Shown here: positions 1,086-29,040 of the stretch, piece after piece
Numbering within the stretch: the first letter of the stretch is position 1
How the letters are laid out: the number at the start of each line of letters is the position of its first letter
IMG/VR virus record: IMGVR_UViG_3300046535_001869
Location: 1-64,000 of that record
Source of the DNA: a virus
Strand: one strand, 5' to 3'
DNA length: 64,000 nucleotides
Program-made: the position numbers and the translations under genes
The notes under the pieces: model-generated
Told to the model about the DNA's origin: nothing
The model's database searches: none
The model's input: the letters and a program-made list of their open reading frames with translations, nothing else

Positions 1086-1445
1086 ATGTTCCTTCGCGTC
1101 CTCGCGATCCTTCTCCTGACGGCGCTGCCGCTCTACGCTCAGACCGTGACCCCGCGGGCCTGCGGCGGTGCGACGAGCGTTACGACCGGCGGAGCTGCGG
1201 TCGTCGCGCTGACAGGTAAGGTCAACGGATACTACATCGTCAACCCGCTGAGCGCGACGGACCAGGGGATCGGCGCGGTTGAGCCGCTCTATATCGACAC
1301 GACGACGACAGCCACGACGACGGCGAGTGGTACTAACGCCGCGCTTGCTCCCGGGCAGCCGTTTGGCGGGATCTTTGGATCGACTACCAATGTTAGCGTC
1401 AACGCCGCGACGTCTGGCCATAATTTCACGTGCGTCAGGTGGTAA
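1086..1445 (+). CDS. Small secreted Thr-rich beta protein
   Basis: Signal peptide MFLRVLAILLLTALPLYA/Q; two Cys. Confidence 0.7.
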   Translation: MFLRVLAILLLTALPLYAQTVTPRACGGATSVTTGGAAVVALTGKVNGYYIVNPLSATDQGIGAVEPLYIDTTTTATTTASGTNAALAPGQPFGGIFGSTTNVSVNAATSGHNFTCVRW

Positions 1446-1450
1446 GGACG

Positions 1451-3412
1451 ATGAAGGGTATCATTGCTGCTACCCTCGCCGCGTGCTTGACTGCCAGTGC
1501 GGCCCACGCCCAGTGGCAGAACGCCGGTCCTGGTTCGGTCGGGACGACCGCGCCGGCCTCGACGGCGACCGCTGGTGTCGCGAAGTGCGACGGTGTCACG
1601 ACGACCTGCGCCGCAGATGGGACAATCACTGCGACGACCGGCGGGACGGCCGGTATCAACCAGTTGACCGGTGACGGTACCGCTGGACCGGCGTCCGGTT
1701 CGGCCGCTATTACGGTCTCGAAGATCGGCGGCAAGGCGTTGACCCTAGGTGGCGCGCTGACGACGACCGGCGGCGCGAGCGGTACGACCCTCGCGTTTCC
1801 GACCACGGGCACGTTCACGTTCCCTGCTGCCTCTGCGACCCTAGCCTCGTTAGCCGGATCCGAGGTCCTGACCAATAAGACGATAAACTGCGCTGACAAC
1901 ACCTGTACGGTACGGATCGGTTCCGACGTAAGCGGCCTGGGGACCAACGTTGCGACCGCGCTAGCGGTCAACGTTGGTACCGCTGGCGCTTTTCTGAAGA
2001 ACAACGGCGACGCGCTCAGCGGTACCTATAGTGGTAATTTTACGTTATCTGGCACGCCGACCATGACCGGCTTAGGTGCCGGCACAATCGCAGAATGCGC
2101 GGGGTTTGCGACCGCCAGCAATGTCATGATTCGCGCCGCGTGTTCGGGTGGTGGCGGCAGCGGCACGGTGACGAGCGTTACTCTCGGCGTACCGGCGTCC
2201 TCGATCTTCGGGACCAGCGGGACGAACCCCGTCACGACCTCTGGCACCTTCAACATAACGACGACCGGTAGCTCTGGGGGGATCCCCTACTTTTCCTCGG
2301 GGACGCAGCTTAGCAGCTCGGCAGCCCTACCCGCGGGGCAGATAGTTCTCGGCGGCGGTGCGGGCGCCGCACCGAACGCCATGTCAGCGATAAGCGGAGA
2401 CGGTTCGTTAGATACCTCAACCGGGATCGTCACCATTACGAGTACCAATGGCACGCCGTTCGCGGCCTCAGCGACGCTCGATACCACCAACGCCACGAAT
2501 ATCGGAAGCGGAACGCTCGACGGTGCGCGGCTCCCCAATACCGTCAACCAGTGCCCCTCGGACATCGACACCTGGAATGGTGTTTTGGACAAGACGATCA
2601 GCTCCACGGTCGGGTTTGTCTATACGACCGGCTCGACCCAGATCGCAGCCCCCAGGACCTTGACGTTGCCAATCGTAGCTGGGCACGGGATTTCAACTTG
2701 TCCGCTGGTCTTTATGGACCTTGCGAGGATCGTCAACAGCACGGGCACTGTTGTCCCGACGCGCCAGTCCACCGATACGATCGACGGAAACACGACCGGA
2801 ACAACGATGGCATGCGCGGGGCAAACCTCGGCGTGGACAGCGCCGGTGGCGGCGTCATGGGGGACCGTTGCGCCGCCGACGCTGTGCAGCGACACGGTGG
2901 TTACCGGTCAGTACCTTACTGTCATCAACGATAATGGGACCGTCGGCCGGGCTCAGGTGAATTTCAACCAACTCGCGGGTACGGCGACCGGAGCGCAGCT
3001 CCCGGCGGCGACCACCTCGACACAGGGCGCGGCGCTCTTACACAACGTGCCGTTCTCGATGGGCTGGAACAGCGCGACGAACCCGGACGGCAACTTCGTG
3101 GCGGTGGTAACGCAGGCGAGCCGGATAACCGCGATCAAGGGCCGGATAGGGCCGGCGGTCGGAGCGACGGCGGCGATTACGGTTAAGAAGGCCGCCAGTG
3201 CTGTTGATTGCGCGGCCTCGGGAACGCCGCTCCATACCGGCACCTTTGACGCTAACGGAACGGCGAATACAGTGCAAACGCTGACCCTGGTTGGCGGCGC
3301 AACGGACGATCTGGCCGTTAACGACACGGTATGCTTCTCGACGGCAAACGGGGCGGCGTTCCTCGCCGGGGTCGGCAAGGGCGTCATCTCAATCGATTGG
3401 GCGCCGCTATGA
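1451..3412 (+). CDS. Fibre-like Thr/Gly/Ala-rich protein with Sec signal peptide
   Basis: ATG 1451 after TAAGGAC; MKGIIAATLAACLTASAAHA/Q; fibre motif ATLASLAGSEVLTNKTI; several Cys pairs. Confidence 0.7.
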   Translation: MKGIIAATLAACLTASAAHAQWQNAGPGSVGTTAPASTATAGVAKCDGVTTTCAADGTITATTGGTAGINQLTGDGTAGPASGSAAITVSKIGGKALTLGGALTTTGGASGTTLAFPTTGTFTFPAASATLASLAGSEVLTNKTINCADNTCTVRIGSDVSGLGTNVATALAVNVGTAGAFLKNNGDALSGTYSGNFTLSGTPTMTGLGAGTIAECAGFATASNVMIRAACSGGGGSGTVTSVTLGVPASSIFGTSGTNPVTTSGTFNITTTGSSGGIPYFSSGTQLSSSAALPAGQIVLGGGAGAAPNAMSAISGDGSLDTSTGIVTITSTNGTPFAASATLDTTNATNIGSGTLDGARLPNTVNQCPSDIDTWNGVLDKTISSTVGFVYTTGSTQIAAPRTLTLPIVAGHGISTCPLVFMDLARIVNSTGTVVPTRQSTDTIDGNTTGTTMACAGQTSAWTAPVAASWGTVAPPTLCSDTVVTGQYLTVINDNGTVGRAQVNFNQLAGTATGAQLPAATTSTQGAALLHNVPFSMGWNSATNPDGNFVAVVTQASRITAIKGRIGPAVGATAAITVKKAASAVDCAASGTPLHTGTFDANGTANTVQTLTLVGGATDDLAVNDTVCFSTANGAAFLAGVGKGVISIDWAPL

Positions 3413-3597
3413 CCCGGGTCTTGCTGGTGCTGGGGTTGCTGGTGCTGGGGGCAGCTTCCGCCCATGCGTGGCTTATTCAAAGCTCTGGTGGCTCGGCACC
3501 GCCGTCTTGCAACGCGGTCATTACCGGGAGCGGCGCGGACGGCAACGCGATCTTGACGGGATCGGCGACGGCGCTGGGAAACCTGACGTGCCAATAG
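3409..3597 (+). CDS. Small secreted peptide
   Basis: ATGA overlap with the previous stop; MTRVLLVLGLLVLGAASAHA/W; two Cys. Confidence 0.65.
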   Translation: MTRVLLVLGLLVLGAASAHAWLIQSSGGSAPPSCNAVITGSGADGNAILTGSATALGNLTCQ

Positions 3598-3607
3598 GAG
3601 ACGTGCT

Positions 3608-4237
3608 GTGAACTTGAAAAAGCTACTGTCCGGCACGCTCGCGGTAACGCTTGCCGCTTATGGCGTGGCCTGGGCGGCGACGCAAACGCTGACCCTCGGG
3701 GCAAGCACCGGGCCGGGCGGTATCCTCACCCTGTTCGGCTCGACATCGGGAAGTTTCTTTCTTCAGCCGCCGGCTGCAGCCGGGACTGCGTCGGGGTGGA
3801 CTGTCCCATCGGGCGTAACGGACTTTAGCGGGACAAGCGGGTTCCTTCAACAGGCGACGACGGGTGCTGCAATTACCGCAGCGGCCATCACAGCAGCCCA
3901 AGTGCCGGCGACGCCGCTCGTGGCGGGGACGGGAGCGGCGCTGGTCGGGCCGAGAGAGTATTACGTCTGCACCGGCACCTGCACGCCGACGCCCCCCGTG
4001 CCGGTCGCGGGGTACGAGTTCTGTATCTACAACGACAACAATGTGGCGACGGCAATCACGCTTCAGGCATTGGGCTCGAGCGCGATGTATGAGAACTCGG
4101 CCCGGACAGCCTACGGTACGGCGGGAACCGGGACGCTGGCGCTGAGCGCAGCGGCGGCGAACAAGGTGTGCATCGTCGGCCGTGACGCTACGCACTATTC
4201 AACGGTCTCGTACAACGGCACGGTCACGGTGAACTAA
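3608..4237 (+). CDS. Fibre-like protein with Sec signal peptide
   Basis: AGGAG SD; MNLKKLLSGTLAVTLAAYGVAWA/A; fibre-like LFGSTSGSFFLQPPAAAG; four Cys. Confidence 0.7.
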   Translation: MNLKKLLSGTLAVTLAAYGVAWAATQTLTLGASTGPGGILTLFGSTSGSFFLQPPAAAGTASGWTVPSGVTDFSGTSGFLQQATTGAAITAAAITAAQVPATPLVAGTGAALVGPREYYVCTGTCTPTPPVPVAGYEFCIYNDNNVATAITLQALGSSAMYENSARTAYGTAGTGTLALSAAAANKVCIVGRDATHYSTVSYNGTVTVN

Positions 4238-4238
4238 G

Positions 4239-5117
4239 ATGTGGCGGTTTTTAACCGTAGCGCTCGCGTTGTGGAGCGCCTCCGCGCAGGCGCAGATGCT
4301 GAAAACCATCGTCGCTGGGAATAACCCGGTGGCGGCAGCCTATGCCGGCCCTGGCGACGTGGTGGCGAGCGCGACCGGATGGTGGGGTCTGCGGGGCTAC
4401 TCGGCGGCGGTCGCTGCCACGGGCACACAGAAATCAGTCACCATCCGTCGGGCGAGCGACGATGCGACCGCTGATATCGTGATCCTGACGACGGGCTATC
4501 TCGATGTGGCAACGGCGACGACGCACTGCGCCGCGACAACCTGCTTCGTGACGAAATTCTGGGATCAGAGCGGCAACAGCCGGGACATCTCGCAAGCAAC
4601 TGGCGCAAACCAGGCGCAGATTTTCCTGAGCGGCGGTCCGGCGGCGGGTTATCCGTATGTGGCCTTTACGGCTGGGACGAATTCTTACGCCGGGGCCGCG
4701 AACTTCACCCCGACGACAGGGGTCGAGTCGTTCAGCGCCGTTGCAAACAGGTCCACCGGCACGGGCCTGGTAAAGATGGTTCGGGGCGGCGGTGGCAATG
4801 AGTTTGACGGCAAGAGCGCCAGCGCGAACAACTGGATATTGACCGGAAACGCCAGTTCGATCACCGCCGCCGCCAACGATGCGACTTGGCATGCCGGCAG
4901 CGCGTTGCTGAACGGGGCAAGCTCGGCCGTTAACATCGACAACTCGGAGACGACCGGGACCGTGACGGGATTCACGACGGCGGCGGCCTACGGCATCATC
5001 GGGGCAAACAGCACGACGATGAAGATTGTCGAAAGCGGGTTCTGGTACAACATCACCTTCACTTCTCAAAACCGGACGGATTTGAGCGCGCAGCAGCACA
5101 GTGCATGGGGATTCTGA
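4239..5117 (+). CDS. Secreted ConA/LamG-like (arabinofuranosidase-B catalytic-like) protein
   Basis: MWRFLTVALALWSASAQA/Q; WWGLR..IRRASDDATADI..CFVTKFWDQSGNSRD pattern. Confidence 0.6.
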   Translation: MWRFLTVALALWSASAQAQMLKTIVAGNNPVAAAYAGPGDVVASATGWWGLRGYSAAVAATGTQKSVTIRRASDDATADIVILTTGYLDVATATTHCAATTCFVTKFWDQSGNSRDISQATGANQAQIFLSGGPAAGYPYVAFTAGTNSYAGAANFTPTTGVESFSAVANRSTGTGLVKMVRGGGGNEFDGKSASANNWILTGNASSITAAANDATWHAGSALLNGASSAVNIDNSETTGTVTGFTTAAAYGIIGANSTTMKIVESGFWYNITFTSQNRTDLSAQQHSAWGF

Positions 5118-5323
5118 TGAATATTTGGGAGCGGCACGATGCACGCCGGCTGATCAAGGAACGGCACGAGGCGGTCTGTAAAGACCCCTCGGGGTTCTGG
5201 GTTGTTCTGACTGTGGTGCTGGCAATTGGTGTGGCCGCTACGCTCATAGGCAGGTCAACGCCTCAGACATGTGTCCCGTGGGCGGGCGATGTGGCGACAC
5301 TGTTTTCGCAACTAAGGTGCTAA
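5117..5323 (+). CDS. Small single-TM membrane protein
   Basis: TGATG coupling; hydrophobic FWVVLTVVLAIGVAATLIG. Confidence 0.55.
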   Translation: MNIWERHDARRLIKERHEAVCKDPSGFWVVLTVVLAIGVAATLIGRSTPQTCVPWAGDVATLFSQLRC

Positions 5324-5327
5324 GATC

Positions 5328-8300
5328 GTGAGGCGAACCCGGCGAAGCATCCTGGCCGGCCTTGCCGCAAGCGTGCCGGGAATGGCATGGGCGGCGCGTC
5401 GCAGCAAGATTCCAACCGGGCCGCCGTCGATACCGCCGCAGATCGTCTCGGTCACGCCGACGACAGGCGGTTTCCTGGGCGGGACGGGATCGGCAAACAC
5501 ACCGATCATGACGATGATCGCCACAATGAGTCCGATGGTGCCGGCGTTCACGGGCACTTGGTCGATAACTGGGCCAGACGCATCTCTATTCGTGATCGAC
5601 GTCTCGACCGGGGTCTTGAGCGTCGGCGCGGTCGACGTAGCGGTGGGCACCTATAACCTTAGCGCCGTCGCTACCCAGGTCGGAGCAACCGGCTCGCCCT
5701 TTACCCAAGCTATCTCTGTCGTCGGCAGCGCGGGGGAATTGCTCGCGACGATGACGCTGGTGAACACTTCAGCCACGGTGGCTCAGCCGTCAGGGTTCGT
5801 CACGCCGATGTTTGGCTGGAATTTCCACAAGGGCCATATCCCGAGCGGGACGGCACCGACGTTCAAGAACGGTTCCCTGCCACAGCCATATTCGTGGGGT
5901 TGTCAATCCTATTGGAGCGACGGCAGCCTCAAGAACGCCTCGTTCATGATGATTTGCCTGGGCTCAACCGTCCCGGCCGGCGGCTCGATCGCGATTGGCG
6001 TGTGGAGCGGCGGCACGGCGCCGACGACGAGCGCAAGAACAGCGGCAGAAGTCTATACCGAGGCGATTCAGGTCAACCTTGTCGGACAGGGTTCGACCTT
6101 TGGACTGACCGGAACCTGGGGTGCGTGGCTGACGAGCGATGTCAACAACGCGGAGCAATTCGTCTATCTCGACGGTGACGCCGGAAAGGTCTGGCGGTTT
6201 CTGACGCATGTCGCCCCGACGCAGGGCGGGACGAAGCATGGCCAGATGGAGTGCTACCATTACGTCGCCGCGCTGACCAACGATACCGGCGGCCTCGGCG
6301 GGTTCCGCTATCTGCCGTGCCTGGCTCAGCCGTGGTATGACGTAAACAGCCCAGCCAAGGCATCCCGATCCTTCTCGACGATCAATTGGCAGCACGGGGC
6401 GGGTCCGACGACGGTGCCTTACCCGCTCTACTACACGCCGCAGACCTGGACCCAGCCGCTGACGACGCATGCGCTATCGACCGTCGTCTTTACCGGCGGT
6501 TCGCTCGCCAGCCTGACTTTCTCGGGCGGCGTCGTAACCGCGACGACCGTCCTACCGCACGGATTGAGCGGCGTGACGAGGATGGGGATCGCCGGGGTCA
6601 CGCCGAGTAACTATAACGGCAGTTTTGCTTGCACGGTCACGGGGGCGTCCACCTTTACCTATCCGATCAGTTCGTCGCCGACATCGCCCGCAACGATCCC
6701 TGGAACCTATGGATTTGTGACCGCCACGGCCGCAGCACCGCACGGGTTTGGCATCGCTACCACGAAGGCGCTGGCTATCCAGGGAAATACCCCGTCCGGG
6801 TACGATACCACCGCGATTACCTGCACGGTCACGACGACGACCGCCTTTAATTATCCGCTCGGGGTCAATCCCGGCACGAACACGGTTGCGGGCACCTATT
6901 TCCTCAACACGACCACGGTCACATCGGCGGGCGCAACGACGGCCTTCTACACGGGCGATGCAGCCAATCAGTTCTGCATCCCGGTGCGAGTGTCCTCGTC
7001 AGGCACCCTGCCGCCACCACTCGACGCTAACACGCTGTATTCCTGCCGGGGCACGAAGACCGGGACGACAACGGTCAACTTCACCACGGTCGCGAGCACG
7101 GCCGGGTCGCCGCTCACGATGACCGGACCCGGTTCCGGCACGCTCACGATTACGCCGCTGCCAACCCTCTATCACTTCGGTCGGATGTTCATGCCGACGA
7201 CAGATGCAAGGTGGAACTTCTTTCAAGGCGCAGGGTCGTACACGGCCGAGCCGACAATCAGGACCGTGATCGACCGGGCGTACTGGAACGGCGATTCGAC
7301 CAACAAGCTGAGCCTGATCAACCCGTGGGACATGACGCTAACTGGGGTTGTCAACTATGCGGCGGACTTCTCCTGGGCGCCTCAGTCCATCGGGAAGCTC
7401 TACTCCGCTCGATCGAGCGGCGGTGGAACGGACGGACGGCTGGACCTCGGCGCGATGACCGGCTATCAGGGAAGCGATTTCTTCAATCAGAGCGCTGCCA
7501 GCGATACGCTCAACCGGATACACGGATTTGCGGCGGCCCTCGATCACCGCTGTTTCCGAAATTCGACGAACGGAAACTGCGTCAACCTTCGTGGTTCGGG
7601 CCACCCGCATACCGGGATGACGGCAAATTCGACGATCCGGTACGTGGCGGATCATTTCAATTCAAATACCGGGTTTACCAGCCCACCGACGGCCAATACC
7701 AACGAGGTATTTGACCAGTCGAACAACACCCACTCCCCGGCCTTTACTTATTGGCCGTTCCTGCGAACCGGCGAGCCGCAGTTTCTCGACATGCTTCTCG
7801 AATGGGGGATCGGCGCAATCCTCGATTGCGACCCGAATTCACGAAACACGTTAGCAGGACAGCCGGCGGCATACACGGCCGTTGGTATCTTCTCTGGATC
7901 GGGCGGCGAGCGCCAGGTTGCTTGGGGCAATCGCGGGGTTCACACCGCAGCCGCCGTCTGCCCGTTGGTAATGCCGGACAGCTCGGACATACACGGCTGC
8001 CTGAGCGGCATGTCCGACGATACCTGCGCCGTATCGCTGGCGGTGTATACGTCCAACATCCTGGGGACATACGCATCGACCAACGGCCTGTTTGGGCCTT
8101 ACGGAGGCCCGGCGACCGGCGGCCCGACAATCTATCAAGACAGCTTTCAAAGCACCTATACCCGGATGGCGATGTGTCTCGCGGCTGGCGCTCGTGAGAA
8201 TCCGGACGCCCTGGTAATCTTGCAGAAGATGGCCGATTGGCACGCCTACCTCGTCAGCAAGTTCGGGTACTATTACACGACGGGGTATTTCAACAAGACG

Positions 8301-8903
8301 GGGATGGCAAACACCGACATCAATGTCGGCTGGCCGGCGATCTCGGTTGACGAGCAGTACGCGACAACGACGCCGTTTGTGGCCTCATGGACGACCAGTT
8401 CACCAAACTGGACGCTGGTGCGAGCGACGGCGGGAAACGGTGCCGTAGTCAGGGACGGCGATCGATTCATGTTCGAGAAGAACCCTCCGTTGCCGCCGCC
8501 AATCTCGGTCACGCTGAACTCACCGACCAACTACCTGCGGGATACGCCGTATTACGCCATCAACACAATAGCCGTAAACGCCACGACCTATACCTGCAAC
8601 ATGACGACAGTGCTCGGTAGCGCAGGCAATATTCTCGTCCCGGCCGCCCCCGGCAGCGGCGGGGCCAACGCCACCTATCATTGGTATGTTGGTCAGGACG
8701 TAGCGCCTGCGATTGGTGCGGAGAATACCGGCTATCAGAACCAGGGTTCCTATATGTCATGGAAGCGTTCATCGCATCTGTGGATGAAGGCGCTTGGAAT
8801 CACTGGGCTTGACGCGGCGATCACCGACGCAGGGTTAAGGTTCGACCATGCAGGGTTCTTGGCGGTCGTGCGCGGTGCGTTTCAGGACCATTTCGGCGCG
8901 TGA
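5328..8903 (+). CDS. Large (1191 aa) putative adhesin/virion appendage with Tat-like signal
   Basis: MRRTRRSILAGLAASVPGMAWA; cadherin-like WSITGPDASLFVIDVSTGVLSV; two repeated VTAT..PHG..I.G.TPS.Y..CTVT..TF.YP modules. Confidence 0.65.
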   Translation: MRRTRRSILAGLAASVPGMAWAARRSKIPTGPPSIPPQIVSVTPTTGGFLGGTGSANTPIMTMIATMSPMVPAFTGTWSITGPDASLFVIDVSTGVLSVGAVDVAVGTYNLSAVATQVGATGSPFTQAISVVGSAGELLATMTLVNTSATVAQPSGFVTPMFGWNFHKGHIPSGTAPTFKNGSLPQPYSWGCQSYWSDGSLKNASFMMICLGSTVPAGGSIAIGVWSGGTAPTTSARTAAEVYTEAIQVNLVGQGSTFGLTGTWGAWLTSDVNNAEQFVYLDGDAGKVWRFLTHVAPTQGGTKHGQMECYHYVAALTNDTGGLGGFRYLPCLAQPWYDVNSPAKASRSFSTINWQHGAGPTTVPYPLYYTPQTWTQPLTTHALSTVVFTGGSLASLTFSGGVVTATTVLPHGLSGVTRMGIAGVTPSNYNGSFACTVTGASTFTYPISSSPTSPATIPGTYGFVTATAAAPHGFGIATTKALAIQGNTPSGYDTTAITCTVTTTTAFNYPLGVNPGTNTVAGTYFLNTTTVTSAGATTAFYTGDAANQFCIPVRVSSSGTLPPPLDANTLYSCRGTKTGTTTVNFTTVASTAGSPLTMTGPGSGTLTITPLPTLYHFGRMFMPTTDARWNFFQGAGSYTAEPTIRTVIDRAYWNGDSTNKLSLINPWDMTLTGVVNYAADFSWAPQSIGKLYSARSSGGGTDGRLDLGAMTGYQGSDFFNQSAASDTLNRIHGFAAALDHRCFRNSTNGNCVNLRGSGHPHTGMTANSTIRYVADHFNSNTGFTSPPTANTNEVFDQSNNTHSPAFTYWPFLRTGEPQFLDMLLEWGIGAILDCDPNSRNTLAGQPAAYTAVGIFSGSGGERQVAWGNRGVHTAAAVCPLVMPDSSDIHGCLSGMSDDTCAVSLAVYTSNILGTYASTNGLFGPYGGPATGGPTIYQDSFQSTYTRMAMCLAAGARENPDALVILQKMADWHAYLVSKFGYYYTTGYFNKTGMANTDINVGWPAISVDEQYATTTPFVASWTTSSPNWTLVRATAGNGAVVRDGDRFMFEKNPPLPPPISVTLNSPTNYLRDTPYYAINTIAVNATTYTCNMTTVLGSAGNILVPAAPGSGGANATYHWYVGQDVAPAIGAENTGYQNQGSYMSWKRSSHLWMKALGITGLDAAITDAGLRFDHAGFLAVVRGAFQDHFGA

Positions 8904-9295
8904 ACCTCCACGCTATAGCCAGCCCGTACGTCGCGGCGATCAATCCGATGCTCCCGGTCTCGGTTCGCGTCAGCACCGGGTACTCGACCGGAGCCGACGG
9001 CTCGCGGATGCCGAGCTACGCTGCGCCGGTCGCGATGCTAGGCCAGGTCCAGCGCATGTCGTCGCGCGACCTGCGGCAGGTATCTGGGTTGAATTTACAA
9101 GGTACCATATCCGCGATCTACCTCGGCGGGGATATCGAGGGCGTCCAGCGCCCGCTGGTCAAGGGCGGCGACCTGATCACGTACCCGGACGGGACGGTGT
9201 GGCTCGTTGTGCTCTCGCTGGAAAGCTGGGGCGCGGTCGGCTCGCCCCAGGAGATGTGGTGCAAGGTCGCTGTGAATCTTCAGAACGGGTCCTGA
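8900..9295 (+). CDS. Head-closure/neck protein
   Basis: MNLHAIASPYVAAINP..KGGDLI..W..V..E.W..WCKVAV pattern of myophage neck proteins; position before terminator and sheath. Confidence 0.7.
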   Translation: MNLHAIASPYVAAINPMLPVSVRVSTGYSTGADGSRMPSYAAPVAMLGQVQRMSSRDLRQVSGLNLQGTISAIYLGGDIEGVQRPLVKGGDLITYPDGTVWLVVLSLESWGAVGSPQEMWCKVAVNLQNGS

Positions 9296-9296
9296 G

Positions 9297-10319
9297 TTGG
9301 CGCTCCCCGATCCCCAGCCGGCCGGCCTGCCGACGATCAGCCAGACCGAGGCGCGGACGCTCACCGGGCTGCGCTCGTTCCTCCTCGGCGTCCTGCCCGC
9401 GGGTACGGACGTAGTACGCGGGCAGGACAACCGCGTGCCGGAGCCGATCGGCGCGGATTTCGTTGTCATGACGCCGTTGATGCAGCCGCGGCTCGGGACG
9501 AACGAGGTCACATACTACGACGATGTGTTCGTTGGTTCGATCGCCGGGACGACGCTGACGGTTTATGCCGACGATCCGGACAGCTACCTGACCGATGATG
9601 CAGACCCACCGAACCTCGTAACTGACGATGCAACGCCGCCCGCGCCGCTGACTAACGATGATCCAGTGGCACTCGTCCTTGCCATGAACCTCGGTCCAGG
9701 CATGGTGGTAAGAGATCGGGTCGCTCCCGAGGATGCGGTCGTCTCGCTCCATACCTCGTCTGGCCTTCCGATCCTAACCTCCTCCGGGAGCCAGGTTACG
9801 GTCACGACCGCGGTCGCCCCGGGCACGGCAATCGTCCGCCAGCTCACCGGGACCCTCGGCGGACCCGGGACCTACGAGGTCTCGCCGTCGCAGTACACCG
9901 AGCCCGAGGTCATGTACGTCGGTGTCCGGGCCGATCTGGTTCCGACCGAGTATACGATCCAGCTCGACGTCCATGGCCCGCGCAGCGGCGACAGCACGCG
10001 GATCATCGAGGGGCTATATCGCTCCGAGTATGCGACGGACTTCCTCGACCCGTATGGCGTCTCGCCGCTGTACTGTAGCGATCCACGTCAAGCGCCGTTT
10101 GTCAACGACCAGGATCAGGTCGAATACCGCTGGTCGCTCGACGCACACCTTCAGGTTAACCCTGTGATCAATACGCCGCAGGAGTTCGCGACCGAGGTCT
10201 TCGTCGATCCACTTGTGGTTGCGCCGGTGCTTCCCTTCCTACCGCTGACGACCTCGTCTGGCGTGCACGTGCAGGCCTCGTCCGGCCACCAGGTCCTAGT
10301 TGGAGTAAACGTTGGCTAA
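9297..10319 (+). CDS. Tail terminator/neck protein with insertions
   Basis: VVRGQDNRVPEP..QLDVHGP..PLYCSDPRQAPFVNDQDQVEYRW..LQVNP; synteny. Confidence 0.7.
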   Translation: MALPDPQPAGLPTISQTEARTLTGLRSFLLGVLPAGTDVVRGQDNRVPEPIGADFVVMTPLMQPRLGTNEVTYYDDVFVGSIAGTTLTVYADDPDSYLTDDADPPNLVTDDATPPAPLTNDDPVALVLAMNLGPGMVVRDRVAPEDAVVSLHTSSGLPILTSSGSQVTVTTAVAPGTAIVRQLTGTLGGPGTYEVSPSQYTEPEVMYVGVRADLVPTEYTIQLDVHGPRSGDSTRIIEGLYRSEYATDFLDPYGVSPLYCSDPRQAPFVNDQDQVEYRWSLDAHLQVNPVINTPQEFATEVFVDPLVVAPVLPFLPLTTSSGVHVQASSGHQVLVGVNVG

Positions 10320-11028: not shown

Positions 11029-11062
11029 AGTCTACTTTTCTCCGAAATGGAGTAAACCTTAA

Positions 11063-21016: not shown

Positions 21017-21020
21017 CGCG

Positions 21021-21701
21021 ATGAGAACGTGGCCTCAAACGGTCCTTAGCCAATACTCCGACAGCCCGCGCCTGATGGCGCTGCTGGAGGACATTGACGA
21101 ATGGATCAGTCCGGACGCCAATATGGAGGCGTTCTATGAGCTGATCTGGAATATCCGTCGGGAGGGCGGCGCCGCGGGTTACGGCCTCGATGTGTGGGGA
21201 CGGATCGTCAACGTCAGTCGTGTTGTCTCGATGACGACCTTTGGCCCGTCGTTCGGCTTCGGAGAGGCCGGCGATCGGACCGGGTTCGATCAGGCGAACT
21301 TCTACGTCGGCGATCGCTCGACGATGAACTTTACGCTGACCGACGAGGTCTACCGGATTCTGATCTTTGCCAGAGCTGCACTGAATATCACGGACTGCTC
21401 GATCCCGGCGATCAATGCGATCATGCGGGGCCTCTTCCCCGGGCGGGGTAACGCCTTCGTTACGGACGGCGCCAACGGTCCGGTGGCCTCGTGCTTTGGA
21501 TTCGCCGAGGCGGGCGACCGGACCGGGTTCGACCAGGGCACGTTCCAGGACGATCAGATACCCGCCTCGCCGCGTCCGATGCACATCATTTACAACTTCG
21601 AGTTTGCCCTACAGCCGTTCGAGATCGCCATCGTGACAAACTCCGGGGTCCTGCCGCGCCCGGTCGGGGTGGCCGCGACGGCGAGCTATGAGGTAATCTG
21701 A
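21021..21701 (+). CDS. Baseplate wedge protein (DUF2612-like)
   Basis: TVLSQYSDSPRL..GYGLDVWGRIVNVSR..LPRPVGV. Confidence 0.8.
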   Translation: MRTWPQTVLSQYSDSPRLMALLEDIDEWISPDANMEAFYELIWNIRREGGAAGYGLDVWGRIVNVSRVVSMTTFGPSFGFGEAGDRTGFDQANFYVGDRSTMNFTLTDEVYRILIFARAALNITDCSIPAINAIMRGLFPGRGNAFVTDGANGPVASCFGFAEAGDRTGFDQGTFQDDQIPASPRPMHIIYNFEFALQPFEIAIVTNSGVLPRPVGVAATASYEVI

Positions 21702-24113
21702 ATGCGCAGATCCTTGCCGTTTGTCCTAGCTGCGGTCCTCCTTCTGCCTCGCCCGTCCGCTGTATGGGCCGAGACTACCTCTGACTTCATCTCTGGGTCG
21801 CCGCTCGCGACGAGTCCGATCCCTTCTACCGCCAAGATCCCGGTGGTCGAGGGGGCTACGCCAGGCGCGCTGATGCATGAGGTCCCGGTATCGTCGTTTC
21901 CTACCTATATGGGGCAACTCAAGGCGATTACACCGCAGCAGTATGGCGCCGTCGGTAATGGGTCGGCTGATGATACGGCAGCGGTGCAGGCTTGGTTCAC
22001 CGCACTAAAGACGGGCAATTATCTCGGATACTGCAACGGTGTCTTTCGGCTGACCGGAAGCGTCAATGCCTCCCCCACAAAATCGTACCGCGTAGAAGGA
22101 TCGTTTGCGGCGGTAAGCTCCACTTCTGGGACCGGCTGTAAATTCTACGTTGACTATAACAACTGGGCTAGTGCGGCGATAGACCTAACAACTCCGTCTA
22201 ACCCAACGACCAGCAACCGGGGTCGCGAGACGTGGTGGAGCAACGTTTCGATTATATATAATCCGGCATTGACAGCGCCTCCGGTCGGCTTTCGGCACAG
22301 ATATTCCTCGGCTCTTAATCTTGAAAACTTCTCGATCCTGCAATACACGGTCAATCGCGGGACGTGCCTGTCGATCAGCAGCGCATTTAATGATCGCCTG
22401 AAGGACAATGTGCAGATATGGGGATGCGGCGGAAACGTGCCGGCGCATCTGCGGCCAGCCGGGATCACGTTTTCGATCACGGCAGCGGCAACTACCCTGA
22501 CATCGAGCGCTACGTTCTTCTCTGCTGCCGATGTTGGTCAGGACATCGTGATCCTCGGGTCGCCTCTATATGAGGCGTTCCACATTGCGTCGTTTACGAA
22601 TACGACCACGGTCGAGGTTACTCGCGCGGCGACGAACACCCATACGGCGCAACTGGGAGCGGTCTCGGCGATCACCGGGGCGATGACCGCCGGCAGCCCA
22701 ACGCTGACGATCAACGTCGCCAACTTGTCGTCGAGTGACGTTGGTAGAAACGTCTACGTGCTCGGCTGCGGCTCGACAGACGGGACATCAATCGGGGCGC
22801 TGCGCTCGACGATCTCGGCCGTCAGTGGGGCCACGGTTACGCTCGCCGATAATGCCCTGACGAACTGCGCCGCCGGTGCGTCGATTATCATCGGCCCGGC
22901 CGTTGAGATTTACGCGGACGCGGACGGAACGATTAACAACGACGTTTCCTTGATTGGGTTGCACGAGGAGCAGAACTCCGGGACGGCGCTCGTTGTCGCG
23001 AACGCGGTCAACTTGCGCGGGACGATGCTCAAACTGCATTCGTGGAACAACGCGAATATCGGCGAGACAGCCTACGAGTCGCAGTTCAACGGGGTCTTTG
23101 TTAGAACTGACCTGGAACTGGGGCAGGCCGACATCGAGGGAACCTCAATAACGACGCTGGGGCAGATACTCCTTCAGGGCATCAATGCGGGCGGCAACAC
23201 GATCGGGATGCTCGATGGCTTCGCGATCACCGGGCAGCCGAAGGTCGCAATCTCCAACATCGCTGCGAACAACGGAGTCACGGTCGGCACGATCAACACG
23301 CCGCACCAATTAGCGTCAACCTGGGTTCCATCTCTTGTGACCTCAGACGGAACGGGGCGTGGGTTGCTCGCCCAGGGCGCGGTGACGACGCAGCTTACGC
23401 CAGCCCAGCTCCCGAAGCTGATCGCAACGACCACCAACGACAACGCCTGTGATGGCTGCGTTGGCCAGATGATCAGCAATGGGTCGGGGAGCGAGACTGC
23501 CACCGTTACCTTTACGGCGGCCACCCCTTCCGTGATTACGTGGACCTCACATGAACTCTCGCAGAGCAATCCGTCTATCCTTTATTTTACTTCCACTATG
23601 GCAGTGCCGACCGGCTTTACCGCTGACACGAACTATTGGACGGTGCCGGGGACGATCACGAACAACACATTCTCGGTTGCACCGACGCTGGCCGATGCAC
23701 TGGCCGGGACAAACCTTGTGGCGGCATCTGATACTGGGACAGGCGTGCAGACGGGGACTCGTTTGGGCTATTTGCCAGACAATACGCCGCTGAGCATCCT
23801 CGCCGTCACGCTGCCCGCCGGTGATTGGGACTGCTGGGGAGGCGCACGGTTTCTGCCTGCTGCGTCCACGACCCAATCTTTTAACGGCGTTGGCATCGCC
23901 CCGACCATCGATTATCTCGGGACGGTTGATCAAAGCAACGGGACGATGGAGACGTACACTGCTTATGCCGCAGGGAAGGCTGTCCAGTATCCAACCGGCC
24001 TGAGTTGGCGACGGCTTGCGACACAAACGGTCGTCTATCTTACGGCGCAGGCCGACTTTGCGGTCGATGTCGAGCGGGTTGCTGGTCGGATAGACTGCCG
24101 CCGGGCACGCTAA
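21702..24113 (+). CDS. Tailspike/fibre with pectate-lyase-like beta-helix start and Sec signal peptide
   Basis: MRRSLPFVLAAVLLLPRPSAVWA/E; PQQYGAVGNGSADDTAAVQA; C-terminal TTTNDNA..LPAGDWD..VYL.AQA.F..RRAR fibre domain. Confidence 0.7.
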   Translation: MRRSLPFVLAAVLLLPRPSAVWAETTSDFISGSPLATSPIPSTAKIPVVEGATPGALMHEVPVSSFPTYMGQLKAITPQQYGAVGNGSADDTAAVQAWFTALKTGNYLGYCNGVFRLTGSVNASPTKSYRVEGSFAAVSSTSGTGCKFYVDYNNWASAAIDLTTPSNPTTSNRGRETWWSNVSIIYNPALTAPPVGFRHRYSSALNLENFSILQYTVNRGTCLSISSAFNDRLKDNVQIWGCGGNVPAHLRPAGITFSITAAATTLTSSATFFSAADVGQDIVILGSPLYEAFHIASFTNTTTVEVTRAATNTHTAQLGAVSAITGAMTAGSPTLTINVANLSSSDVGRNVYVLGCGSTDGTSIGALRSTISAVSGATVTLADNALTNCAAGASIIIGPAVEIYADADGTINNDVSLIGLHEEQNSGTALVVANAVNLRGTMLKLHSWNNANIGETAYESQFNGVFVRTDLELGQADIEGTSITTLGQILLQGINAGGNTIGMLDGFAITGQPKVAISNIAANNGVTVGTINTPHQLASTWVPSLVTSDGTGRGLLAQGAVTTQLTPAQLPKLIATTTNDNACDGCVGQMISNGSGSETATVTFTAATPSVITWTSHELSQSNPSILYFTSTMAVPTGFTADTNYWTVPGTITNNTFSVAPTLADALAGTNLVAASDTGTGVQTGTRLGYLPDNTPLSILAVTLPAGDWDCWGGARFLPAASTTQSFNGVGIAPTIDYLGTVDQSNGTMETYTAYAAGKAVQYPTGLSWRRLATQTVVYLTAQADFAVDVERVAGRIDCRRAR

Positions 24114-24139
24114 AAAGATCCATTTGAGGAGCACGTGTA

Positions 24140-25339
24140 GTGCAGGACAGCAACACACCCGCCAAGATCCCTCTCCCCTGGGCGTCGAGCGCGGGCGGCG
24201 GGTACATCGAGGTGATCCCGACCGCGTCCCAGATCGGGATCACCCCGGGACGCGCCTCGTTCACCGACGGCTTCGTTCCGCTGAACTTCGTGCCGCTGGC
24301 CTCCGGCGGCGTCGGGCCGCTCGGCAAGGACTTCAACGGCATCCTCAACCAGGTCACGGCCGGGCTGCAGTGGCAGCAGGCAGGTGGTCCGATTCTCTAC
24401 GACGCGGCGTTCTCCTCGGCGATCGGTGGATACCCGGCCGGCGCGGTCATCGCCAAGGCGGGGATGGGCGGGCGATTCTGGTATTCGCTGGTCGACAACA
24501 ACGTTACGAACCCGGACGCGGCCGGCGCGGGGTGGATCGGGCTCGGCCTCCAGACGTTCGTCGATACACCGACGACGTACTACGTCGACTTCTCGACCGG
24601 CAGCGACTCGACCGGGACGGGGTTGATCTCGGCTCCGTGGAAGACGCTCCAGTACGCTTTCGACTACCTGAACACCCATGTCGTCGCTTCAGGCGTCGCG
24701 GTTACCATCTCCCAGAACGGGCCGGTAGATGGGCCGCACACCGATACGACCGGGCTGATTATCGCGAATGCGATCAACGGCGCGTCAATCCTCAACGTCG
24801 TGATCAATGGCGCGATCCTGACCAGCGCCGCAGCTGGGATCTTCGTGACGAACGGTGGCGTGGTTCAGATCAGCGGCAGTGGCAGCATCCGCGGTGCGAG
24901 CTACGACGTCGTTAGCACAGGAAACTCAGTCGTCCAGTATCAGGGGGCCACCCCCGGGGCATGTGCACTTGTGAAACTGCTAGCCCAGTTCGGTGCGACG
25001 CTTCGGATCACCGGAGACTACACGGACTCGGGAAACTCTGGTCATCACTGGTTCGCGGACTTCGGTGGTCTAATCAGTGTCGACCGCGGGACCGGCGTCG
25101 CGTCTACGATCACGACCTCGGGTACGCCGGCTTACGGAGTCGCCTTCGCCGACGCGTCGAGCGGGAGCATCATCCGCTGCACGACCGCGCTCACGGTCTT
25201 TGCCGGAACGGGAGCGACCGGAACGCGGTACCTCGTCGACAAGACCAGTGGGATCGATACTGGAGGTGGTGGTTCGACGTTCATCCCAGGCAGTGTCGGG
25301 GGGACGGCCGACGCGGCGACCTTCGGCTGGTACGCGTGA
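24140..25339 (+). CDS. Canonical baseplate-anchored tail fibre
   Basis: PAKIPLPWA..ASFTDGF.PL..GGVGPLGKDFNGIL..AIGGYPAGA..NPD...W; no signal peptide. Confidence 0.8.
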   Translation: MQDSNTPAKIPLPWASSAGGGYIEVIPTASQIGITPGRASFTDGFVPLNFVPLASGGVGPLGKDFNGILNQVTAGLQWQQAGGPILYDAAFSSAIGGYPAGAVIAKAGMGGRFWYSLVDNNVTNPDAAGAGWIGLGLQTFVDTPTTYYVDFSTGSDSTGTGLISAPWKTLQYAFDYLNTHVVASGVAVTISQNGPVDGPHTDTTGLIIANAINGASILNVVINGAILTSAAAGIFVTNGGVVQISGSGSIRGASYDVVSTGNSVVQYQGATPGACALVKLLAQFGATLRITGDYTDSGNSGHHWFADFGGLISVDRGTGVASTITTSGTPAYGVAFADASSGSIIRCTTALTVFAGTGATGTRYLVDKTSGIDTGGGGSTFIPGSVGGTADAATFGWYA

Positions 25340-27960
25340 TGCGCCGCCTTCTGGTCGTCCTCGCGCTCCTGCTGGCGGCGTCGGGCGCCGAGGCCCAGAC
25401 CTGCCCGGTGACCCAGTCGACGCCCGCGCTGACCGCCGGGGGCAACGTTTTCGGGCGCATCGCGTCGCAGTGGAACTCGTACTTTGGCGCGAAGGTCGAC
25501 GCGAACAACGGGAGCCTTTGCAATCCGACGATAAACGGACAGGCCGCGTTCCCGGACCTCCCCAACGGCGAGCTCCTCGGCGCGTTCGGCGGCCACCTGG
25601 TACCGGTGACCGTGGGATCGCACCTGGTCCTCACGGGGAGTATCCTGTCGGCCGATCCCGCGGCGGTCTATGGGCCAGCCAGCGCCGTGTTGAACGAGAT
25701 CGCGACCTACGCCGACACCACGGGCAAACTGATCAAAGGAACCGGCGCAGCATATTTAGACGCGGCCGGACTGAACATCGGCATCGGAGTCGCAGCACAG
25801 GCCAACGTGCCGGGCTATGCAATGGAGGTCCAACAGAAGAGCATCGGGCTCACCGGGTTCAGCTCGACGGCAGCTTTCTTTCACAACGATTTCACGGGCT
25901 CCGATGCAAACGCGAACGTCAACGGCTCGTATAGCGATCTGTGGTACGAGGGGACGACGGCGGGCAACCAGGGGTTTGGGAGCAGAAACAGTGCCTTTAC
26001 CTACACGGCCGGGTCTCCGCTTGGTAGTTTGCCGCACCAGTACTTCAACTCTCCCAATATCGGCACACTGACTTATCTGGCCGGGGTCTACGGGCGTACC
26101 GCGCACTACCTTCCGGGCACCATCACCTATGCCGCCTCGGTCTTGGCGGACGGCATCTACAACATCTCGACTCCGGTCGGCGGCGCGGTCTCAAACTTTT
26201 CCAATTTTCTGGCAATTCCTCCTTATGCGGCCGCTAGTCTCAATTATGCCTTCTTGATCCCCGCCGCTACGTGTAGCCCGAATTGCTATGATATCACATT
26301 TCGTACACTCGGAGACCCGCTGACCTTTGGGACCGCTGGCGGGGCGGGCTTGGCGGTTCTTGATCCAGGCGCGACGATAGCAAATTATACTGCGATATAC
26401 GGCGCCGCTACGGGCGCGGGGCCGACAATTCGGGCGCAGGGTACAGATCCAAACCCAGATATCACCGTGGGCGCCAAGGGCACGGGTAGCGTCATACTTC
26501 AGAGCAACAGCCTCAACTCGGCGACATTTTCGGCACCCGCAGGTGGGGTCAACAATTTCTCCTTCCTTGGGTCGATCAGTGGCTCGTCGCTCTCGATCGG
26601 CGCGGCCGGCTCGGATACCGATATCCGTATTGCGGTTCTACCAAAAGGAGCGGGATCATTCGACGTTTTCTCGCCAGCCAACGTATATAACAACATCGCC
26701 TCCGGCATCACGGCGGACGGCGCGACGCTGACGGCCCAGAGCGACGCGACGACGGCCCACTACGTCTACACCTGCGCGATCGGGACCTGCAACGGCACGG
26801 CGCCGATCTACGATGCCGTGCGCGGGGTCATGAATTCGCTCGCTGGTCAGGGCTCGGATACGTTCACGAACGCGGTCAGCGGTTACGTTATCGAGCGCAC
26901 CGGCAGGTCCGGGCCGCCCTATGGGTCGTTTCCGGTCAGCGCGGCGTTCAACGCGATTGGCATCTGTGCGGCGGACGGGTGCGGCGTCTGGGGCTTCAAC
27001 TCGATCTTGACGGATAACGAGGGGCAGAGCGTCAGCTCCCACGGAGCGCGGTTCCTATTCAATGAATACGACTTCAACGTCACGTCGCCAAACACAACGG
27101 TCTCTGCGCTGAACATCGGCGGGACCTGGCTGTCCCAGCCGCTCGCCGCCTTCGGCCCGTCGATCCTGGCGCCGAGCGGCGAGGTGGTGATCTCGACCAA
27201 CAACACGACGGCCTCAGGAAACAACACGCTCCACTTCGCCTCGACGACCGGCGTGGTCGACGGGCGAAAGATCCAGACGGCCAATGTAATGGCCGGGACG
27301 ACCGTTTCGTCCCATACCAGCACGACGGTAGTAATGAGCGCCAACGCAACCGGGTCTGGCGTGGCGAGTTCGCAGGCCGTCTACTTCGAACCAGGGTTCA
27401 TCTGGAACTGGGGTTGGGGGACGACGGATAACTGCTGCTTGACGGCGTTCCACGTCGGCGCCGCCGCGGCAGCTGGTGCGAGCGTTGCGAGCCAGAACGT
27501 CGACATGCTGTGGTTTGACGCGAGCGGCGTCCAGAAGACGACGACGCTGGCCGCCACGGCTACCGGCCTGAACCTGGCGAGCAGCGGTAGCAGCGGCTCG
27601 CTCGCCATCAACCTCCTTGGCGCCGGGACCTTCCGGACCGGGGACGGAGGTGGCTTGTCGATCAACGGATTGGCGGTGGCGTCCGGCAGCGGAACCACGC
27701 TAAGCCTGGGTTCCGATGCCGGGTGGACTACCGCGATCGGTGTCGGAAATACGGTCGCGCCCCTGAACCTTCACGGAACTTCTGTAGCCGTCGACAACGG
27801 TCTGCGTACCAGCACGGCTATCGATAAGGGCGCCGGTTCGGTGAACTCGCTGACCTACTGGGCCGACGGAACGCAGGGCATCGCCTCCTGCTCGGTCGTA
27901 ACGGCGGCGGCGACGATCACGATCAAGGCTGGCTTGGTCGTTGGAATGACGGGGTGTTAG
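25339..27960 (+). CDS. Fibre protein with Sec signal peptide
   Basis: ATG 25339 (TGATG); MRRLLVVLALLLAASGAEA/Q; fibre motif GPASAVLNEIATYADTTGKLIK; GTD.N.DI...KG.G repeats; many Cys pairs. Confidence 0.7.
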   Translation: MRRLLVVLALLLAASGAEAQTCPVTQSTPALTAGGNVFGRIASQWNSYFGAKVDANNGSLCNPTINGQAAFPDLPNGELLGAFGGHLVPVTVGSHLVLTGSILSADPAAVYGPASAVLNEIATYADTTGKLIKGTGAAYLDAAGLNIGIGVAAQANVPGYAMEVQQKSIGLTGFSSTAAFFHNDFTGSDANANVNGSYSDLWYEGTTAGNQGFGSRNSAFTYTAGSPLGSLPHQYFNSPNIGTLTYLAGVYGRTAHYLPGTITYAASVLADGIYNISTPVGGAVSNFSNFLAIPPYAAASLNYAFLIPAATCSPNCYDITFRTLGDPLTFGTAGGAGLAVLDPGATIANYTAIYGAATGAGPTIRAQGTDPNPDITVGAKGTGSVILQSNSLNSATFSAPAGGVNNFSFLGSISGSSLSIGAAGSDTDIRIAVLPKGAGSFDVFSPANVYNNIASGITADGATLTAQSDATTAHYVYTCAIGTCNGTAPIYDAVRGVMNSLAGQGSDTFTNAVSGYVIERTGRSGPPYGSFPVSAAFNAIGICAADGCGVWGFNSILTDNEGQSVSSHGARFLFNEYDFNVTSPNTTVSALNIGGTWLSQPLAAFGPSILAPSGEVVISTNNTTASGNNTLHFASTTGVVDGRKIQTANVMAGTTVSSHTSTTVVMSANATGSGVASSQAVYFEPGFIWNWGWGTTDNCCLTAFHVGAAAAAGASVASQNVDMLWFDASGVQKTTTLAATATGLNLASSGSSGSLAINLLGAGTFRTGDGGGLSINGLAVASGSGTTLSLGSDAGWTTAIGVGNTVAPLNLHGTSVAVDNGLRTSTAIDKGAGSVNSLTYWADGTQGIASCSVVTAAATITIKAGLVVGMTGC

Positions 27961-27961
27961 T

Positions 27962-28213
27962 ATGATGATCACGGTACGCGTACTTTTTGCGATGATCCTC
28001 CTTTCGAGCGCGGCGCTGGCCCAACAACCCGTGCCGGTCCCGGCCCCGCAGCAGCAGATCGACCCGGTGACGATGGCTTACCAGCTCGGTATCTCCCTGG
28101 GCACCGCCCTCACCCAGATGGAGGCCCAGAAGGCGACGCTGATCGAGTGGCTGAAGGCCGCCCAGGCGGAGACGGAGGCGGTAAAGCGTCGCGCCGAAAA
28201 TATAAAGAAGTGA
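27962..28213 (+). CDS. Small secreted coiled-coil protein (possible fibre chaperone)
   Basis: MMITVRVLFAMILLSSAALA/Q; follows the fibre gene. Confidence 0.55.
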   Translation: MMITVRVLFAMILLSSAALAQQPVPVPAPQQQIDPVTMAYQLGISLGTALTQMEAQKATLIEWLKAAQAETEAVKRRAENIKK

Positions 28214-29040
28214 GACCTGCTCTCGTTGGTCTCTTGTTTCTCGCTGCCTGCGGTGGCGGTAGTTCCCCTGTACCGCCATCACCCGGACCGTTGACGATCG
28301 CTGACGTTAGGGGTTACCTCGCCCAGACGCGGTGTCCCGATGGATCACCTCCGCTGGGATGCCTCGGAACGGCGCAGCAGCGCGCCTCCGATCCAATGCT
28401 GTGGCGGCGCGCGGACTGGCCGCTCCCCGGGTATCAGACCTCGGATAGCGTCGTCGCTGACGACGACTCGTACTTCATCACCACGTGGTCTTATCCGCCG
28501 TTCGGGCCGTTTGTCGCGGCCAACGGGGACGGCGGTGAGGTCTACATGGTCAGCAACGGCGCGGTGCGCATCTGCTGTACCCAGGACGGCGGGCAACCAG
28601 GGATCCAGCGCTTCGCTGACTGGTGGCTTTTCGACGACGCGACGCCGAGCGGCGCGTGGCGACAGTACGACTCGAAGTCGCGTGCCCGGCGCGAGACCGT
28701 GACGTTCCCGGCCTCCGGCTACGGGCTGACGCAGATCACCGCCGACACGATCATCTCGGAGCACTACGACGCCGTGGGGCTCGACGGGAAGATGGAGCGG
28801 TTCTACATGGCCGCGGGTTGGGGCCGGCTGCTGTGGCAGGTGTGGTGGCCGCCTGGGTCGCTGTTTCCGCCGCCGTCTGATATCGCCACGCGTTGCCCCG
28901 CTGTTTCGTGGGATGGGCCGCCGGCCGAGCACCCGGACTGGATTCTGCAGGACTGTAGGCTGACGACTAACCTCGTATCGGCTGACGGGATGCTCAGTGT
29001 TCGCAGCTTCGGATGGCCCCCGGCGGGGTTCGCGCCGTGA
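28210..29040 (+). CDS. Lipoprotein of unknown function
   Basis: GTG 28210; MRPALVGLLFLAA/C lipobox. Confidence 0.6.
   Translation: MRPALVGLLFLAACGGGSSPVPPSPGPLTIADVRGYLAQTRCPDGSPPLGCLGTAQQRASDPMLWRRADWPLPGYQTSDSVVADDDSYFITTWSYPPFGPFVAANGDGGEVYMVSNGAVRICCTQDGGQPGIQRFADWWLFDDATPSGAWRQYDSKSRARRETVTFPASGYGLTQITADTIISEHYDAVGLDGKMERFYMAAGWGRLLWQVWWPPGSLFPPPSDIATRCPAVSWDGPPAEHPDWILQDCRLTTNLVSADGMLSVRSFGWPPAGFAP

Follow-up and report, generated by a model that had tools for sequence, protein, structure and literature searches.

Why should a contractile-tailed phage place a set of genes with export signals within the operon that encodes its virion? The question arises from positions 1086-29040 of the window analyzed here, i.e., the first 64 kb (64,000 nucleotides) of a complete 109,299-bp virus record of an uncultured contractile-tailed phage (IMG/VR record IMGVR_UViG_3300046535_001869). 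Here, ten genes that begin with predicted signal peptides (SPs), together 13.7 kb or 12.5% of the genome, constitute two accessory blocks inserted in an otherwise conserved late virion operon. The explanation that we favor, at a probability of roughly 0.55, is that the blocks are a mobile late-gene cassette. Its exported products would bind surface glycans or degrade them, folding in the periplasm and being set free at lysis.

Signals were called by rules, using one fixed, home-made heuristic that was applied to 122 called genes. For the Sec pathway, the rule demands a positive n-region, an uncharged hydrophobic h-region of about 8-15 residues and small residues at positions -3 and -1. A preliminary description of this DNA listed about ten open reading frames (ORFs) with export signals in the region, and all ten N-termini (10/10) display the expected n-, h- and c-region layout, with eight Sec signals, one twin-arginine (Tat) signal and one lipoprotein signal (a slash marks the predicted end of the signal):

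1086..1445, + strand: 119-amino-acid (aa) protein with a Sec signal (...PLYA/Q) and two cysteines (Cys 26 and 116)
1451..3412, + strand: 653-aa fiber-like protein with a Sec signal (...AAHA/Q), a small Cys module (CDGVTTTC), central tail-fiber repeats and a conserved C-terminal domain
3409..3597, + strand: 62-aa peptide with a Sec signal (...SAHA/W), mature form 42 aa with two Cys; ATGA overlap with the upstream stop
3608..4237, + strand: 209-aa protein with a Sec signal (...VAWA/A) and four Cys; AGGAG ribosome-binding site
4239..5117, + strand: 292-aa protein with a Sec signal (...SAQA/Q), similar to the GH54 arabinofuranosidase-B catalytic domain (Pfam ArabFuran-catal, 3e-9)
5328..8903, + strand: 1191-aa protein with a Tat signal (...MAWA/A), a cadherin/Ig-like domain, a PL26-like three-domain lyase fold and an inserted repeat region (~aa 370-540)
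21702..24113, + strand: 803-aa right-handed beta-helix protein with a Sec signal (...AVWA/E), depolymerase-like, with a variable C-terminal domain
25339..27960, + strand: 873-aa fiber-like protein with a Sec signal (...GAEA/Q) and a conserved N-domain bracketed by Cys22 and Cys61
27962..28213, + strand: 83-aa protein with a Sec signal (...AALA/Q), Pro-rich and then helical, without Cys
28210..29040, + strand: 276-aa lipoprotein with the lipobox LAAC and six further Cys; GTGA overlap with the upstream stop

The rule is passed by each of the eight Sec candidates (8/8), seven of them with a classic AxA-type site and the 1086 protein with L at -3. In the 5328 protein, the twin-arginine motif TRRSIL (in TRRSILAG...AWA) stands before the hydrophobic stretch, and the lipobox Cys of 28210 is residue 14 of the chosen start. 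The stricter form of the rule is passed by 12 of the 122 genes, i.e., the ten listed above and two more (31836, in the lysis cassette, and a Rossmann-fold protein that is a false positive), which corresponds to 10 of 25 genes inside the region versus 2 of 97 elsewhere (Fisher p=1.2e-6). The core of the virion is signal-less, as had been claimed; this applies to the sheath, the tube, the baseplate proteins and the tail fiber at 24140, the tube having passed a looser first version of the rule, which did not demand a positive n-region, but failing the stricter one. The fiber motifs and close Cys pairs quoted in the preliminary description are all present in the translations, and the 3409 ORF ends at 3597 rather than at 3611 as given there. 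Its starts of 1451, 25339 and 28210 are internal to longer ORFs (1430, 24961 and 28147, respectively), but they are favored as starts because of ATGA/GTGA start-stop overlaps or a ribosome-binding site. Such overlaps are found at 3409, 25339 and 28210, the start of 21702 abuts the preceding stop, and ribosome-binding sites support the long starts of 1451, 3608 and 5328.

The residue predicted at position +1 is Gln at five of the nine cleavage sites (1086, 1451, 4239, 25339 and 27962), as it is in several homologues (P0007, L006 and L007); an N-terminal pyroglutamate on these mature ends is possible. In the public gene call for 21702 (P0017, 734 aa), which starts at Met70, the stretch 21702-21911 is left out and with it the signal, i.e., automated annotation can hide such signals.

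In the beta-helix, 25339, 1451 and 5328 families, the homologues keep the signals. Among the homologues of the 21702 beta-helix protein (35-57% identity), four of five pass the signal rule, and the fifth, for which a longer start was called, has a signal-like segment behind that start; the linker behind the signal varies. The N-domain of 25339, with its signal, Cys22 and Cys61, is kept in P0005, P0007, P0011 and the viral contig L006, where the C-terminal parts are unrelated; a weaker match in L007/L008 retains the signal but not the Cys pair. A signal is present in 15 of 15 homologues of 1451 that have its N- or C-terminal module in common, compared to 30 of 99 that match it in the central repeats only (p=2e-7). 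The Tat signal of 5328 is near-identical in L028, L029 and L036, and twin-arginine motifs are common among 150 listed of 835 HMMER relatives, many of which have Tat or Sec signals. These sequences indicate that the signals are under selection.

The mature Cys counts of the nine Cys-containing proteins are all even (2, 12, 2, 4, 2, 16, 10, 12 and 6, where the first 12 refers to 1451 after cleavage), as opposed to 32 of 78 other genes, and many of the Cys occur in close pairs. The Cys frequency is 1.54% in the exported proteins and 0.62% in signal-less structural genes. In 4239, CAATTC aligns with CANTTC of secreted fungal GH54 enzymes (PDB 6sxr/1wd3, E 4e-4). The mature proteins also contain few charged residues and much Thr, Ser, Gly and Asn. 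The exported proteins probably form disulfides outside the cytoplasm. Because the signals are kept in homologues, the Cys counts are even in 9/9 and the Cys pair of 4239 is aligned with that of secreted enzymes, the ten ORFs are very likely export substrates.

Given the home-made heuristic and the public start of 21702 at Met70, the hydrophobic N-termini could be thought to be unused for export, the proteins being cytoplasmic virion or lysis-released proteins, or the true starts being located downstream. The signals are, however, kept at 35-70% homologue identity while adjacent linkers diverge, the start-stop overlaps are found at the long starts and the Cys parity is even throughout, which makes this explanation highly improbable.

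Export raises the question of how the ten genes relate to the operon in which they are found. On the + strand, the late operon starts at about 87.8 kb of the record, which has terminal repeats of 127 bp, with the terminase, portal and head genes, and runs across the record start into the window. There, it continues with gp148, the collar (8900), the neck terminator (9297), a DUF3383-type sheath (11063), the tube, the tape measure, the baseplate (J-like 19520, DUF2612 21021), the tail fiber (24140) and then the lysis cassette, and it ends at a terminator-like site at 33152. The tail module is closest to Burkholderia PE067-type phages (sheath identity 48%); searches of isolate phages gave no DNA match. 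Because no integrase or resolvase was detected in the genome, the phage looks like a virulent myovirus, and only lytic late expression is likely. Block 1 (1086-8903, 7.8 kb) is located where the head genes give way to the collar gene, and block 2 (21702-24113 and 25339-29040) on both sides of the tail fiber gene. The signal-less genes that flank or accompany the ten are:

148..1071, + strand: left flank of insertion 1, signal-less 307-aa protein gp148, with a 60% identical homologue in L002 directly before the collar gene
5105..5323, + strand: 72-aa protein with one central membrane helix, directly upstream of the Tat gene
8900..9295, + strand: right flank of insertion 1, collar/head-tail connector (phrog_1912, 1e-32; weak E217 gp28 match)
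21021..21701, + strand: left flank of insertion 2, DUF2612 baseplate protein (Pfam, 2e-48)
24140..25339, + strand: canonical tail fiber without signal, outside the exported set (phrog_12796 N-terminal domain, 1e-31)

For gp148, there was no match in Pfam, PHROG or PDB sequences. In the relative L002 (sheath 54% identical), gp148 is followed directly by the collar gene, i.e., block 1 is missing, and in L003 the head genes lead to the collar without block 1. In L005, whose tail fiber is 52% identical to the 24140 protein at the N-terminus, the DUF2612 gene is followed directly by the tail fiber and a chaperone-like gene, without signal-bearing genes. These adjacencies identify the blocks as accessory, inserted in the manner of morons.

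The gene order 1451-3409-3608-4239-5105-5328 of block 1 recurs in a 45.8-kb contig (L037+L029) and, without a detected copy of 4239, in L036, with identities of 36-95% over both. At matching positions, the copies of 3409 are 95% (L036) and 61% (L037) identical, those of 3608 92% (L036) and 39% (L037), and that of 4239 in L029 75%; the 1086 protein has no homologue in the fetched loci. About 24 kb of flanking DNA in L036 and L037+L029 contain no other homologue of this phage genome. In L037, at least two more genes with signals stand before the block, and in L029 the gene behind it is endolysin-like. Homologues of the 5105 protein (75% identical in L029, 36% in L036) are likewise encoded directly before the Tat gene, i.e., the 5105 protein is co-inherited with the Tat protein, of which it may be a dedicated membrane partner. 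A composition test for foreign origin was not significant (GC content at third codon positions 0.77 vs 0.80, p=0.10).

The mobility of the blocks bears on the idea put forward in the preliminary description, that exported fibers are folded with disulfides in the periplasm and docked on particles at lysis, where they would provide extra receptor-binding or depolymerase arms. Several observations speak for such periplasm-matured appendages. The genes belong to the virion operon, with translational coupling to the genes of the baseplate and the fiber, 1451 and 25339 contain tail-fiber repeats, 21702 displays a tailspike fold, and the 25339 family combines a conserved N-domain with varied C-terminal parts, like anchored receptor-binding proteins. 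In addition, 4239 weakly matches phrog_10356, annotated "virion structural protein". However, the blocks are missing in relatives with the same neck and baseplate, and no fixed docking partner travels with block 1, which is found in phages without any other shared gene in the fetched flanks. The 25339-type gene changes its position; in L006, a relative in the head module, it is found right after the portal gene, while here it follows the tail fiber. An all-versus-all BLASTP comparison gave no match between any two of the SP proteins and hence no sign of a common N-terminal adaptor, and Pfam and PHROGs revealed no particle-binding or adaptor domain in any of them, as compared to the phrog_12796 domain in the SP-less fiber 24140; an adaptor of a novel kind may exist. 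The presence of this canonical, signal-less fiber also argues against an exported set of virion fibers, for which a literature search gave no precedent.

Further information comes from eight viral contigs with PL26-like genes, five of which have a Tat or Sec signal, two are signal-less and one is unclear. Both signal-less genes (L032 7929-10403; L033 5915-8359) are located immediately downstream of the portal gene, and their products begin not with a signal but with another peptide, YPGTPGTTLYAG, that is conserved between them. This arrangement looks like two delivery routes for one PL26-like enzyme family, where the YPGTPGTTLYAG-type proteins may be the virion-attached form of the same enzyme. 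Taken together, it is unlikely that the exported proteins become virion appendages. A generic docking handle, e.g., lectin-like binding to a glycosylated capsid or tail, would let exported fibers or depolymerases join released virions; as the cassette moves between different phage backbones, such a handle might take the place of a protein-specific adaptor, but we regard this variant as quite improbable. Thus, what stands of the original proposal is the export and the probable disulfides, not the docking of a second virion fiber set at lysis. Nor is "second set of fibers" an adequate term, as at least three members are enzyme-like (the PL26-like lyase, the tailspike-type beta-helix and the GH54-like protein). 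As to the alternative named there, that the proteins are displayed on or released from the infected cell, the sequences suggest that the released version fits better than docking.

What, then, would the exported proteins do? An AlphaFold2 (AF2) model of 5328 (predicted local distance difference test score, pLDDT, 76) contains a cadherin-like domain at aa 34-135 (Z 11.5) and aligns with the PL26 lyase 5xqg at Z 10.9 over 505-522 residues across the whole target, at a root-mean-square deviation (rmsd) of 4.3-4.7; the PL26 fold consists of an N-terminal beta domain, an alpha/alpha toroid and a C-terminal beta-sandwich. The Pfam PcRGLX N-domain matches three of nine homologues of 5328. There was no PDB sequence match for 5328, also not with a 58-sequence profile of its family, no usable protein-atlas match and no protein match among isolate phages. 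The gene was absent from 301 searched genomes of the order of a Bradyrhizobium-labelled metagenome-assembled genome (MAG), and 1451 was absent from the two MAGs. Distant MAG matches and a single Tardiphaga homologue are all that hints at an alphaproteobacterial host. The structural match, a moderate one, suggests that 5328 may be a Tat-exported PL26-like lyase. Its repeat insertion (~6440-6950, aa 370-540) is absent from most relatives, comprises two similar modules and is modelled at very low confidence.

The AF2 model of 21702 is reliable only at about aa 73-440 (overall pLDDT 52) and matches Geobacillus virus E2 ORF18 (Z 26.5), the AS12 tailspike (24.0), WceF (20.1) and VexL (18.8). An alignment scan of viral contigs for the beta-helix gave motif-level matches only. 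The beta-helix members that share the C-terminal domain (24105-24113, P0019 and P0022) end in a conserved Cys-Arg-Arg-x-Arg tail. Comparison of isolate phages with 21702 and 25339 gave small shared domains only, a Rhizobium phage match being a small Ig-like module of a tail protein, and PDB sequence searches with 21702, 25339 and 1451 gave nothing. No known family was found for 1086, 3409, 3608, 27962 and 28210; in the protein atlas, 28210 matches unnamed bacterial clusters only.

The nearest solved relatives of all three enzyme-like members belong to pectin-active families, and signal peptides are reported on 5% of prophage carbohydrate-active enzymes (CAZymes) (PMC13507307). The PL26-, pectate-lyase- and GH54-like proteins might accordingly be auxiliary enzymes that cut pectin-type polymers of plants or soil for the infected cell. 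Yet the genome looks virulent, the genes are located in a late operon beside lysis genes, and the enzyme-like genes travel together with fiber-like proteins. Moreover, the beta-helix and lyase folds are also standard folds of phage depolymerases. There is, in our view, only a very slight chance that carbon supply is the function.

We therefore return to the mobile cassette of released glycan-active proteins. Its members look like a kit composed of the Tat-exported PL26-like lyase, the beta-helix depolymerase, the GH54-like protein, the two fiber-like mosaics with tail-fiber repeats, small partners and the lipoprotein. The ten genes would be transcribed together with the virion genes and in part coupled to them in translation, as suggested by the tight junctions, from which the timing is deduced. 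Judged from the signals and their conservation, the host Sec, Tat and lipoprotein pathways would export the proteins and the signals would be cleaved; Cys parity and the local Cys pairs point to folding in the periplasm with disulfide bonds. The proteins would then remain in the periplasm, or already trim polysaccharide on their way, up to the moment when the cell is opened by holin, endolysin and spanin. If the folds are a guide, the free proteins could after lysis strip capsule, extracellular polysaccharide (EPS) or lipopolysaccharide from debris and neighboring cells, so that the progeny would escape trapping and gain access to new hosts.

The possibility of trimming in transit leads to a related scenario, where the proteins act on the envelope of their own host cell before lysis; the receptor polysaccharide would be trimmed or blocked, with superinfection exclusion or protection of the progeny from debris as the outcome. 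The lipoprotein would then act in the manner of T5 Llp or phi80 Cor, and 27962, 28210 and the signal-less 29041, located beside the lysis cassette, may serve lysis or exclusion. The genes downstream of block 2 are:

29041..29472, + strand: 143-aa protein with an N-terminal membrane helix and a helical remainder, inner-membrane-spanin-like by sequence only
30088..32447, + strand: lysis cassette, with a GH25 endolysin at 30402-31262 (Pfam Glyco_hydro_25 9e-20, and PG_binding_1)
31399-31839, + strand: two-helix holin-like protein of the lysis cassette
31836-32216, + strand: signal/lipobox-like 126-aa protein of the lysis cassette, with an N-terminal hydrophobic segment ending in LEGC

The 29041 protein has no family match. 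LEGC in the 31836 protein may be an atypical lipobox, which would make this protein a spanin candidate. In the layout of a spanin pair, 28210 (276 aa) is located upstream of 29041, neither embedded nor downstream, and the endolysin gene follows 1 kb further on. A protein with a response-regulator receiver domain (Pfam 6e-9) is encoded at 29472-29903, between the exported block and the lysis cassette.

In favor of action on the cell's own envelope, a lipoprotein and a membrane-anchored coiled-coil protein adjoin the tail fiber and lysis genes, the cassette abuts lysis-type genes also in L028 and L029, and the bacterial look-alikes of 21702 are exported. One of them, WceF of Pantoea stewartii, carries a Tat signal and influences the chain length of EPS, its final location not having been determined (PMC7949094), and the other, VexL, is called a periplasmic depolymerase in the title of its PDB entry (6fi2). 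On the other hand, late expression leaves scant time for exclusion, the 28210 protein (276 aa) is far larger than Llp, Cor and typical outer-membrane spanin subunits, and no homology to exclusion or spanin families was found. We consider action before lysis to be rather unlikely.

Release at lysis, as the favored reading, must itself be weighed against a number of observations. The similarity to PL26 is moderate (Z 10.9, rmsd 4.7), and only about half of the beta-helix protein is modelled reliably. Export by Sec or Tat goes no further than the periplasm, from where the enzymes would still need a way to capsule or EPS in order to act on it before lysis. Other phages, too, carry additional receptor-binding proteins as variable insertions, i.e., absence from relatives is no proof of a non-virion status, and the fiber-like members share repeats with true tail fibers. 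Within the PL26-like family, signal-bearing and signal-less members cannot be told apart by Cys density or parity. At the block borders, a scan that covered the sigma-70 consensus alone revealed no separate promoter, and no terminator was detected there.

Apart from the exported blocks, a stretch of about 30-35 aa is common to the neck terminator (9297-10319), baseplate J (19520-21016) and a head protein (genome 104946-105914) at 56-59% identity, and is found also in the neck and sheath regions of L002.

The usual assumption is that phages make their depolymerases and receptor-binding proteins in the cytoplasm, and that these either become attached to the particle or spill out when the cell lyses. 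If the present interpretation is correct, there is a third route, a horizontally exchanged late cassette whose products leave via Sec or Tat and mature like extracellular enzymes of bacteria. Annotation would have to change, as gene callers and "tail fiber" labels miss the signals, and the cassettes would be a source of disulfide-stabilized depolymerases. It would also become a testable question when and where phages attack the sugar coat of their hosts.

Exported non-virion proteins are encoded among or beside tail genes by lom and bor of lambda, llp of T5 and cor of phi80, which are accessory insertions. These are single small genes with roles in exclusion or host fitness and show no homology to the present genes, whereas here there are ten genes, including large enzymes and fibers. 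Beyond signal counts for prophage CAZymes, a literature search revealed no description of export-tagged fiber/depolymerase cassettes in late operons of tailed phages. Signal-bearing genes of unknown function occur in Porphyromonas phages (PMC10367356), and both this work and the CAZyme survey (PMC13507307) deal with phage proteins predicted to use host secretion, but neither describes clustered, co-inherited cassettes of this kind in a virion operon. The PL26 exo-rhamnogalacturonan lyase PcRGLX (5xq3/5xqg) has a three-domain layout that aligns with 5328 over about 520 residues; it differs in that there is no sequence-level match, and 5328 has the extra cadherin-like domain and the inserted repeat region. 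WceF, a trimeric tailspike-like EPS glycosidase, and VexL resemble 21702 in that a beta-helix follows an export signal instead of a particle-binding domain. No sequence homology to them was detected, and their genes are chromosomal and located in polysaccharide-synthesis clusters, whereas the phage genes belong to a virulent late operon. Tailspikes such as Acinetobacter AS12 gp42, Klebsiella Depo32, KP32gp38 and CBA120 TSP1-4 share with 21702 the beta-helix fold (Z 22-24) and the position beside baseplate and fiber genes. These proteins, however, are signal-less virion parts with N-terminal anchor or adaptor domains, while 21702 has a Sec signal followed by a variable linker.

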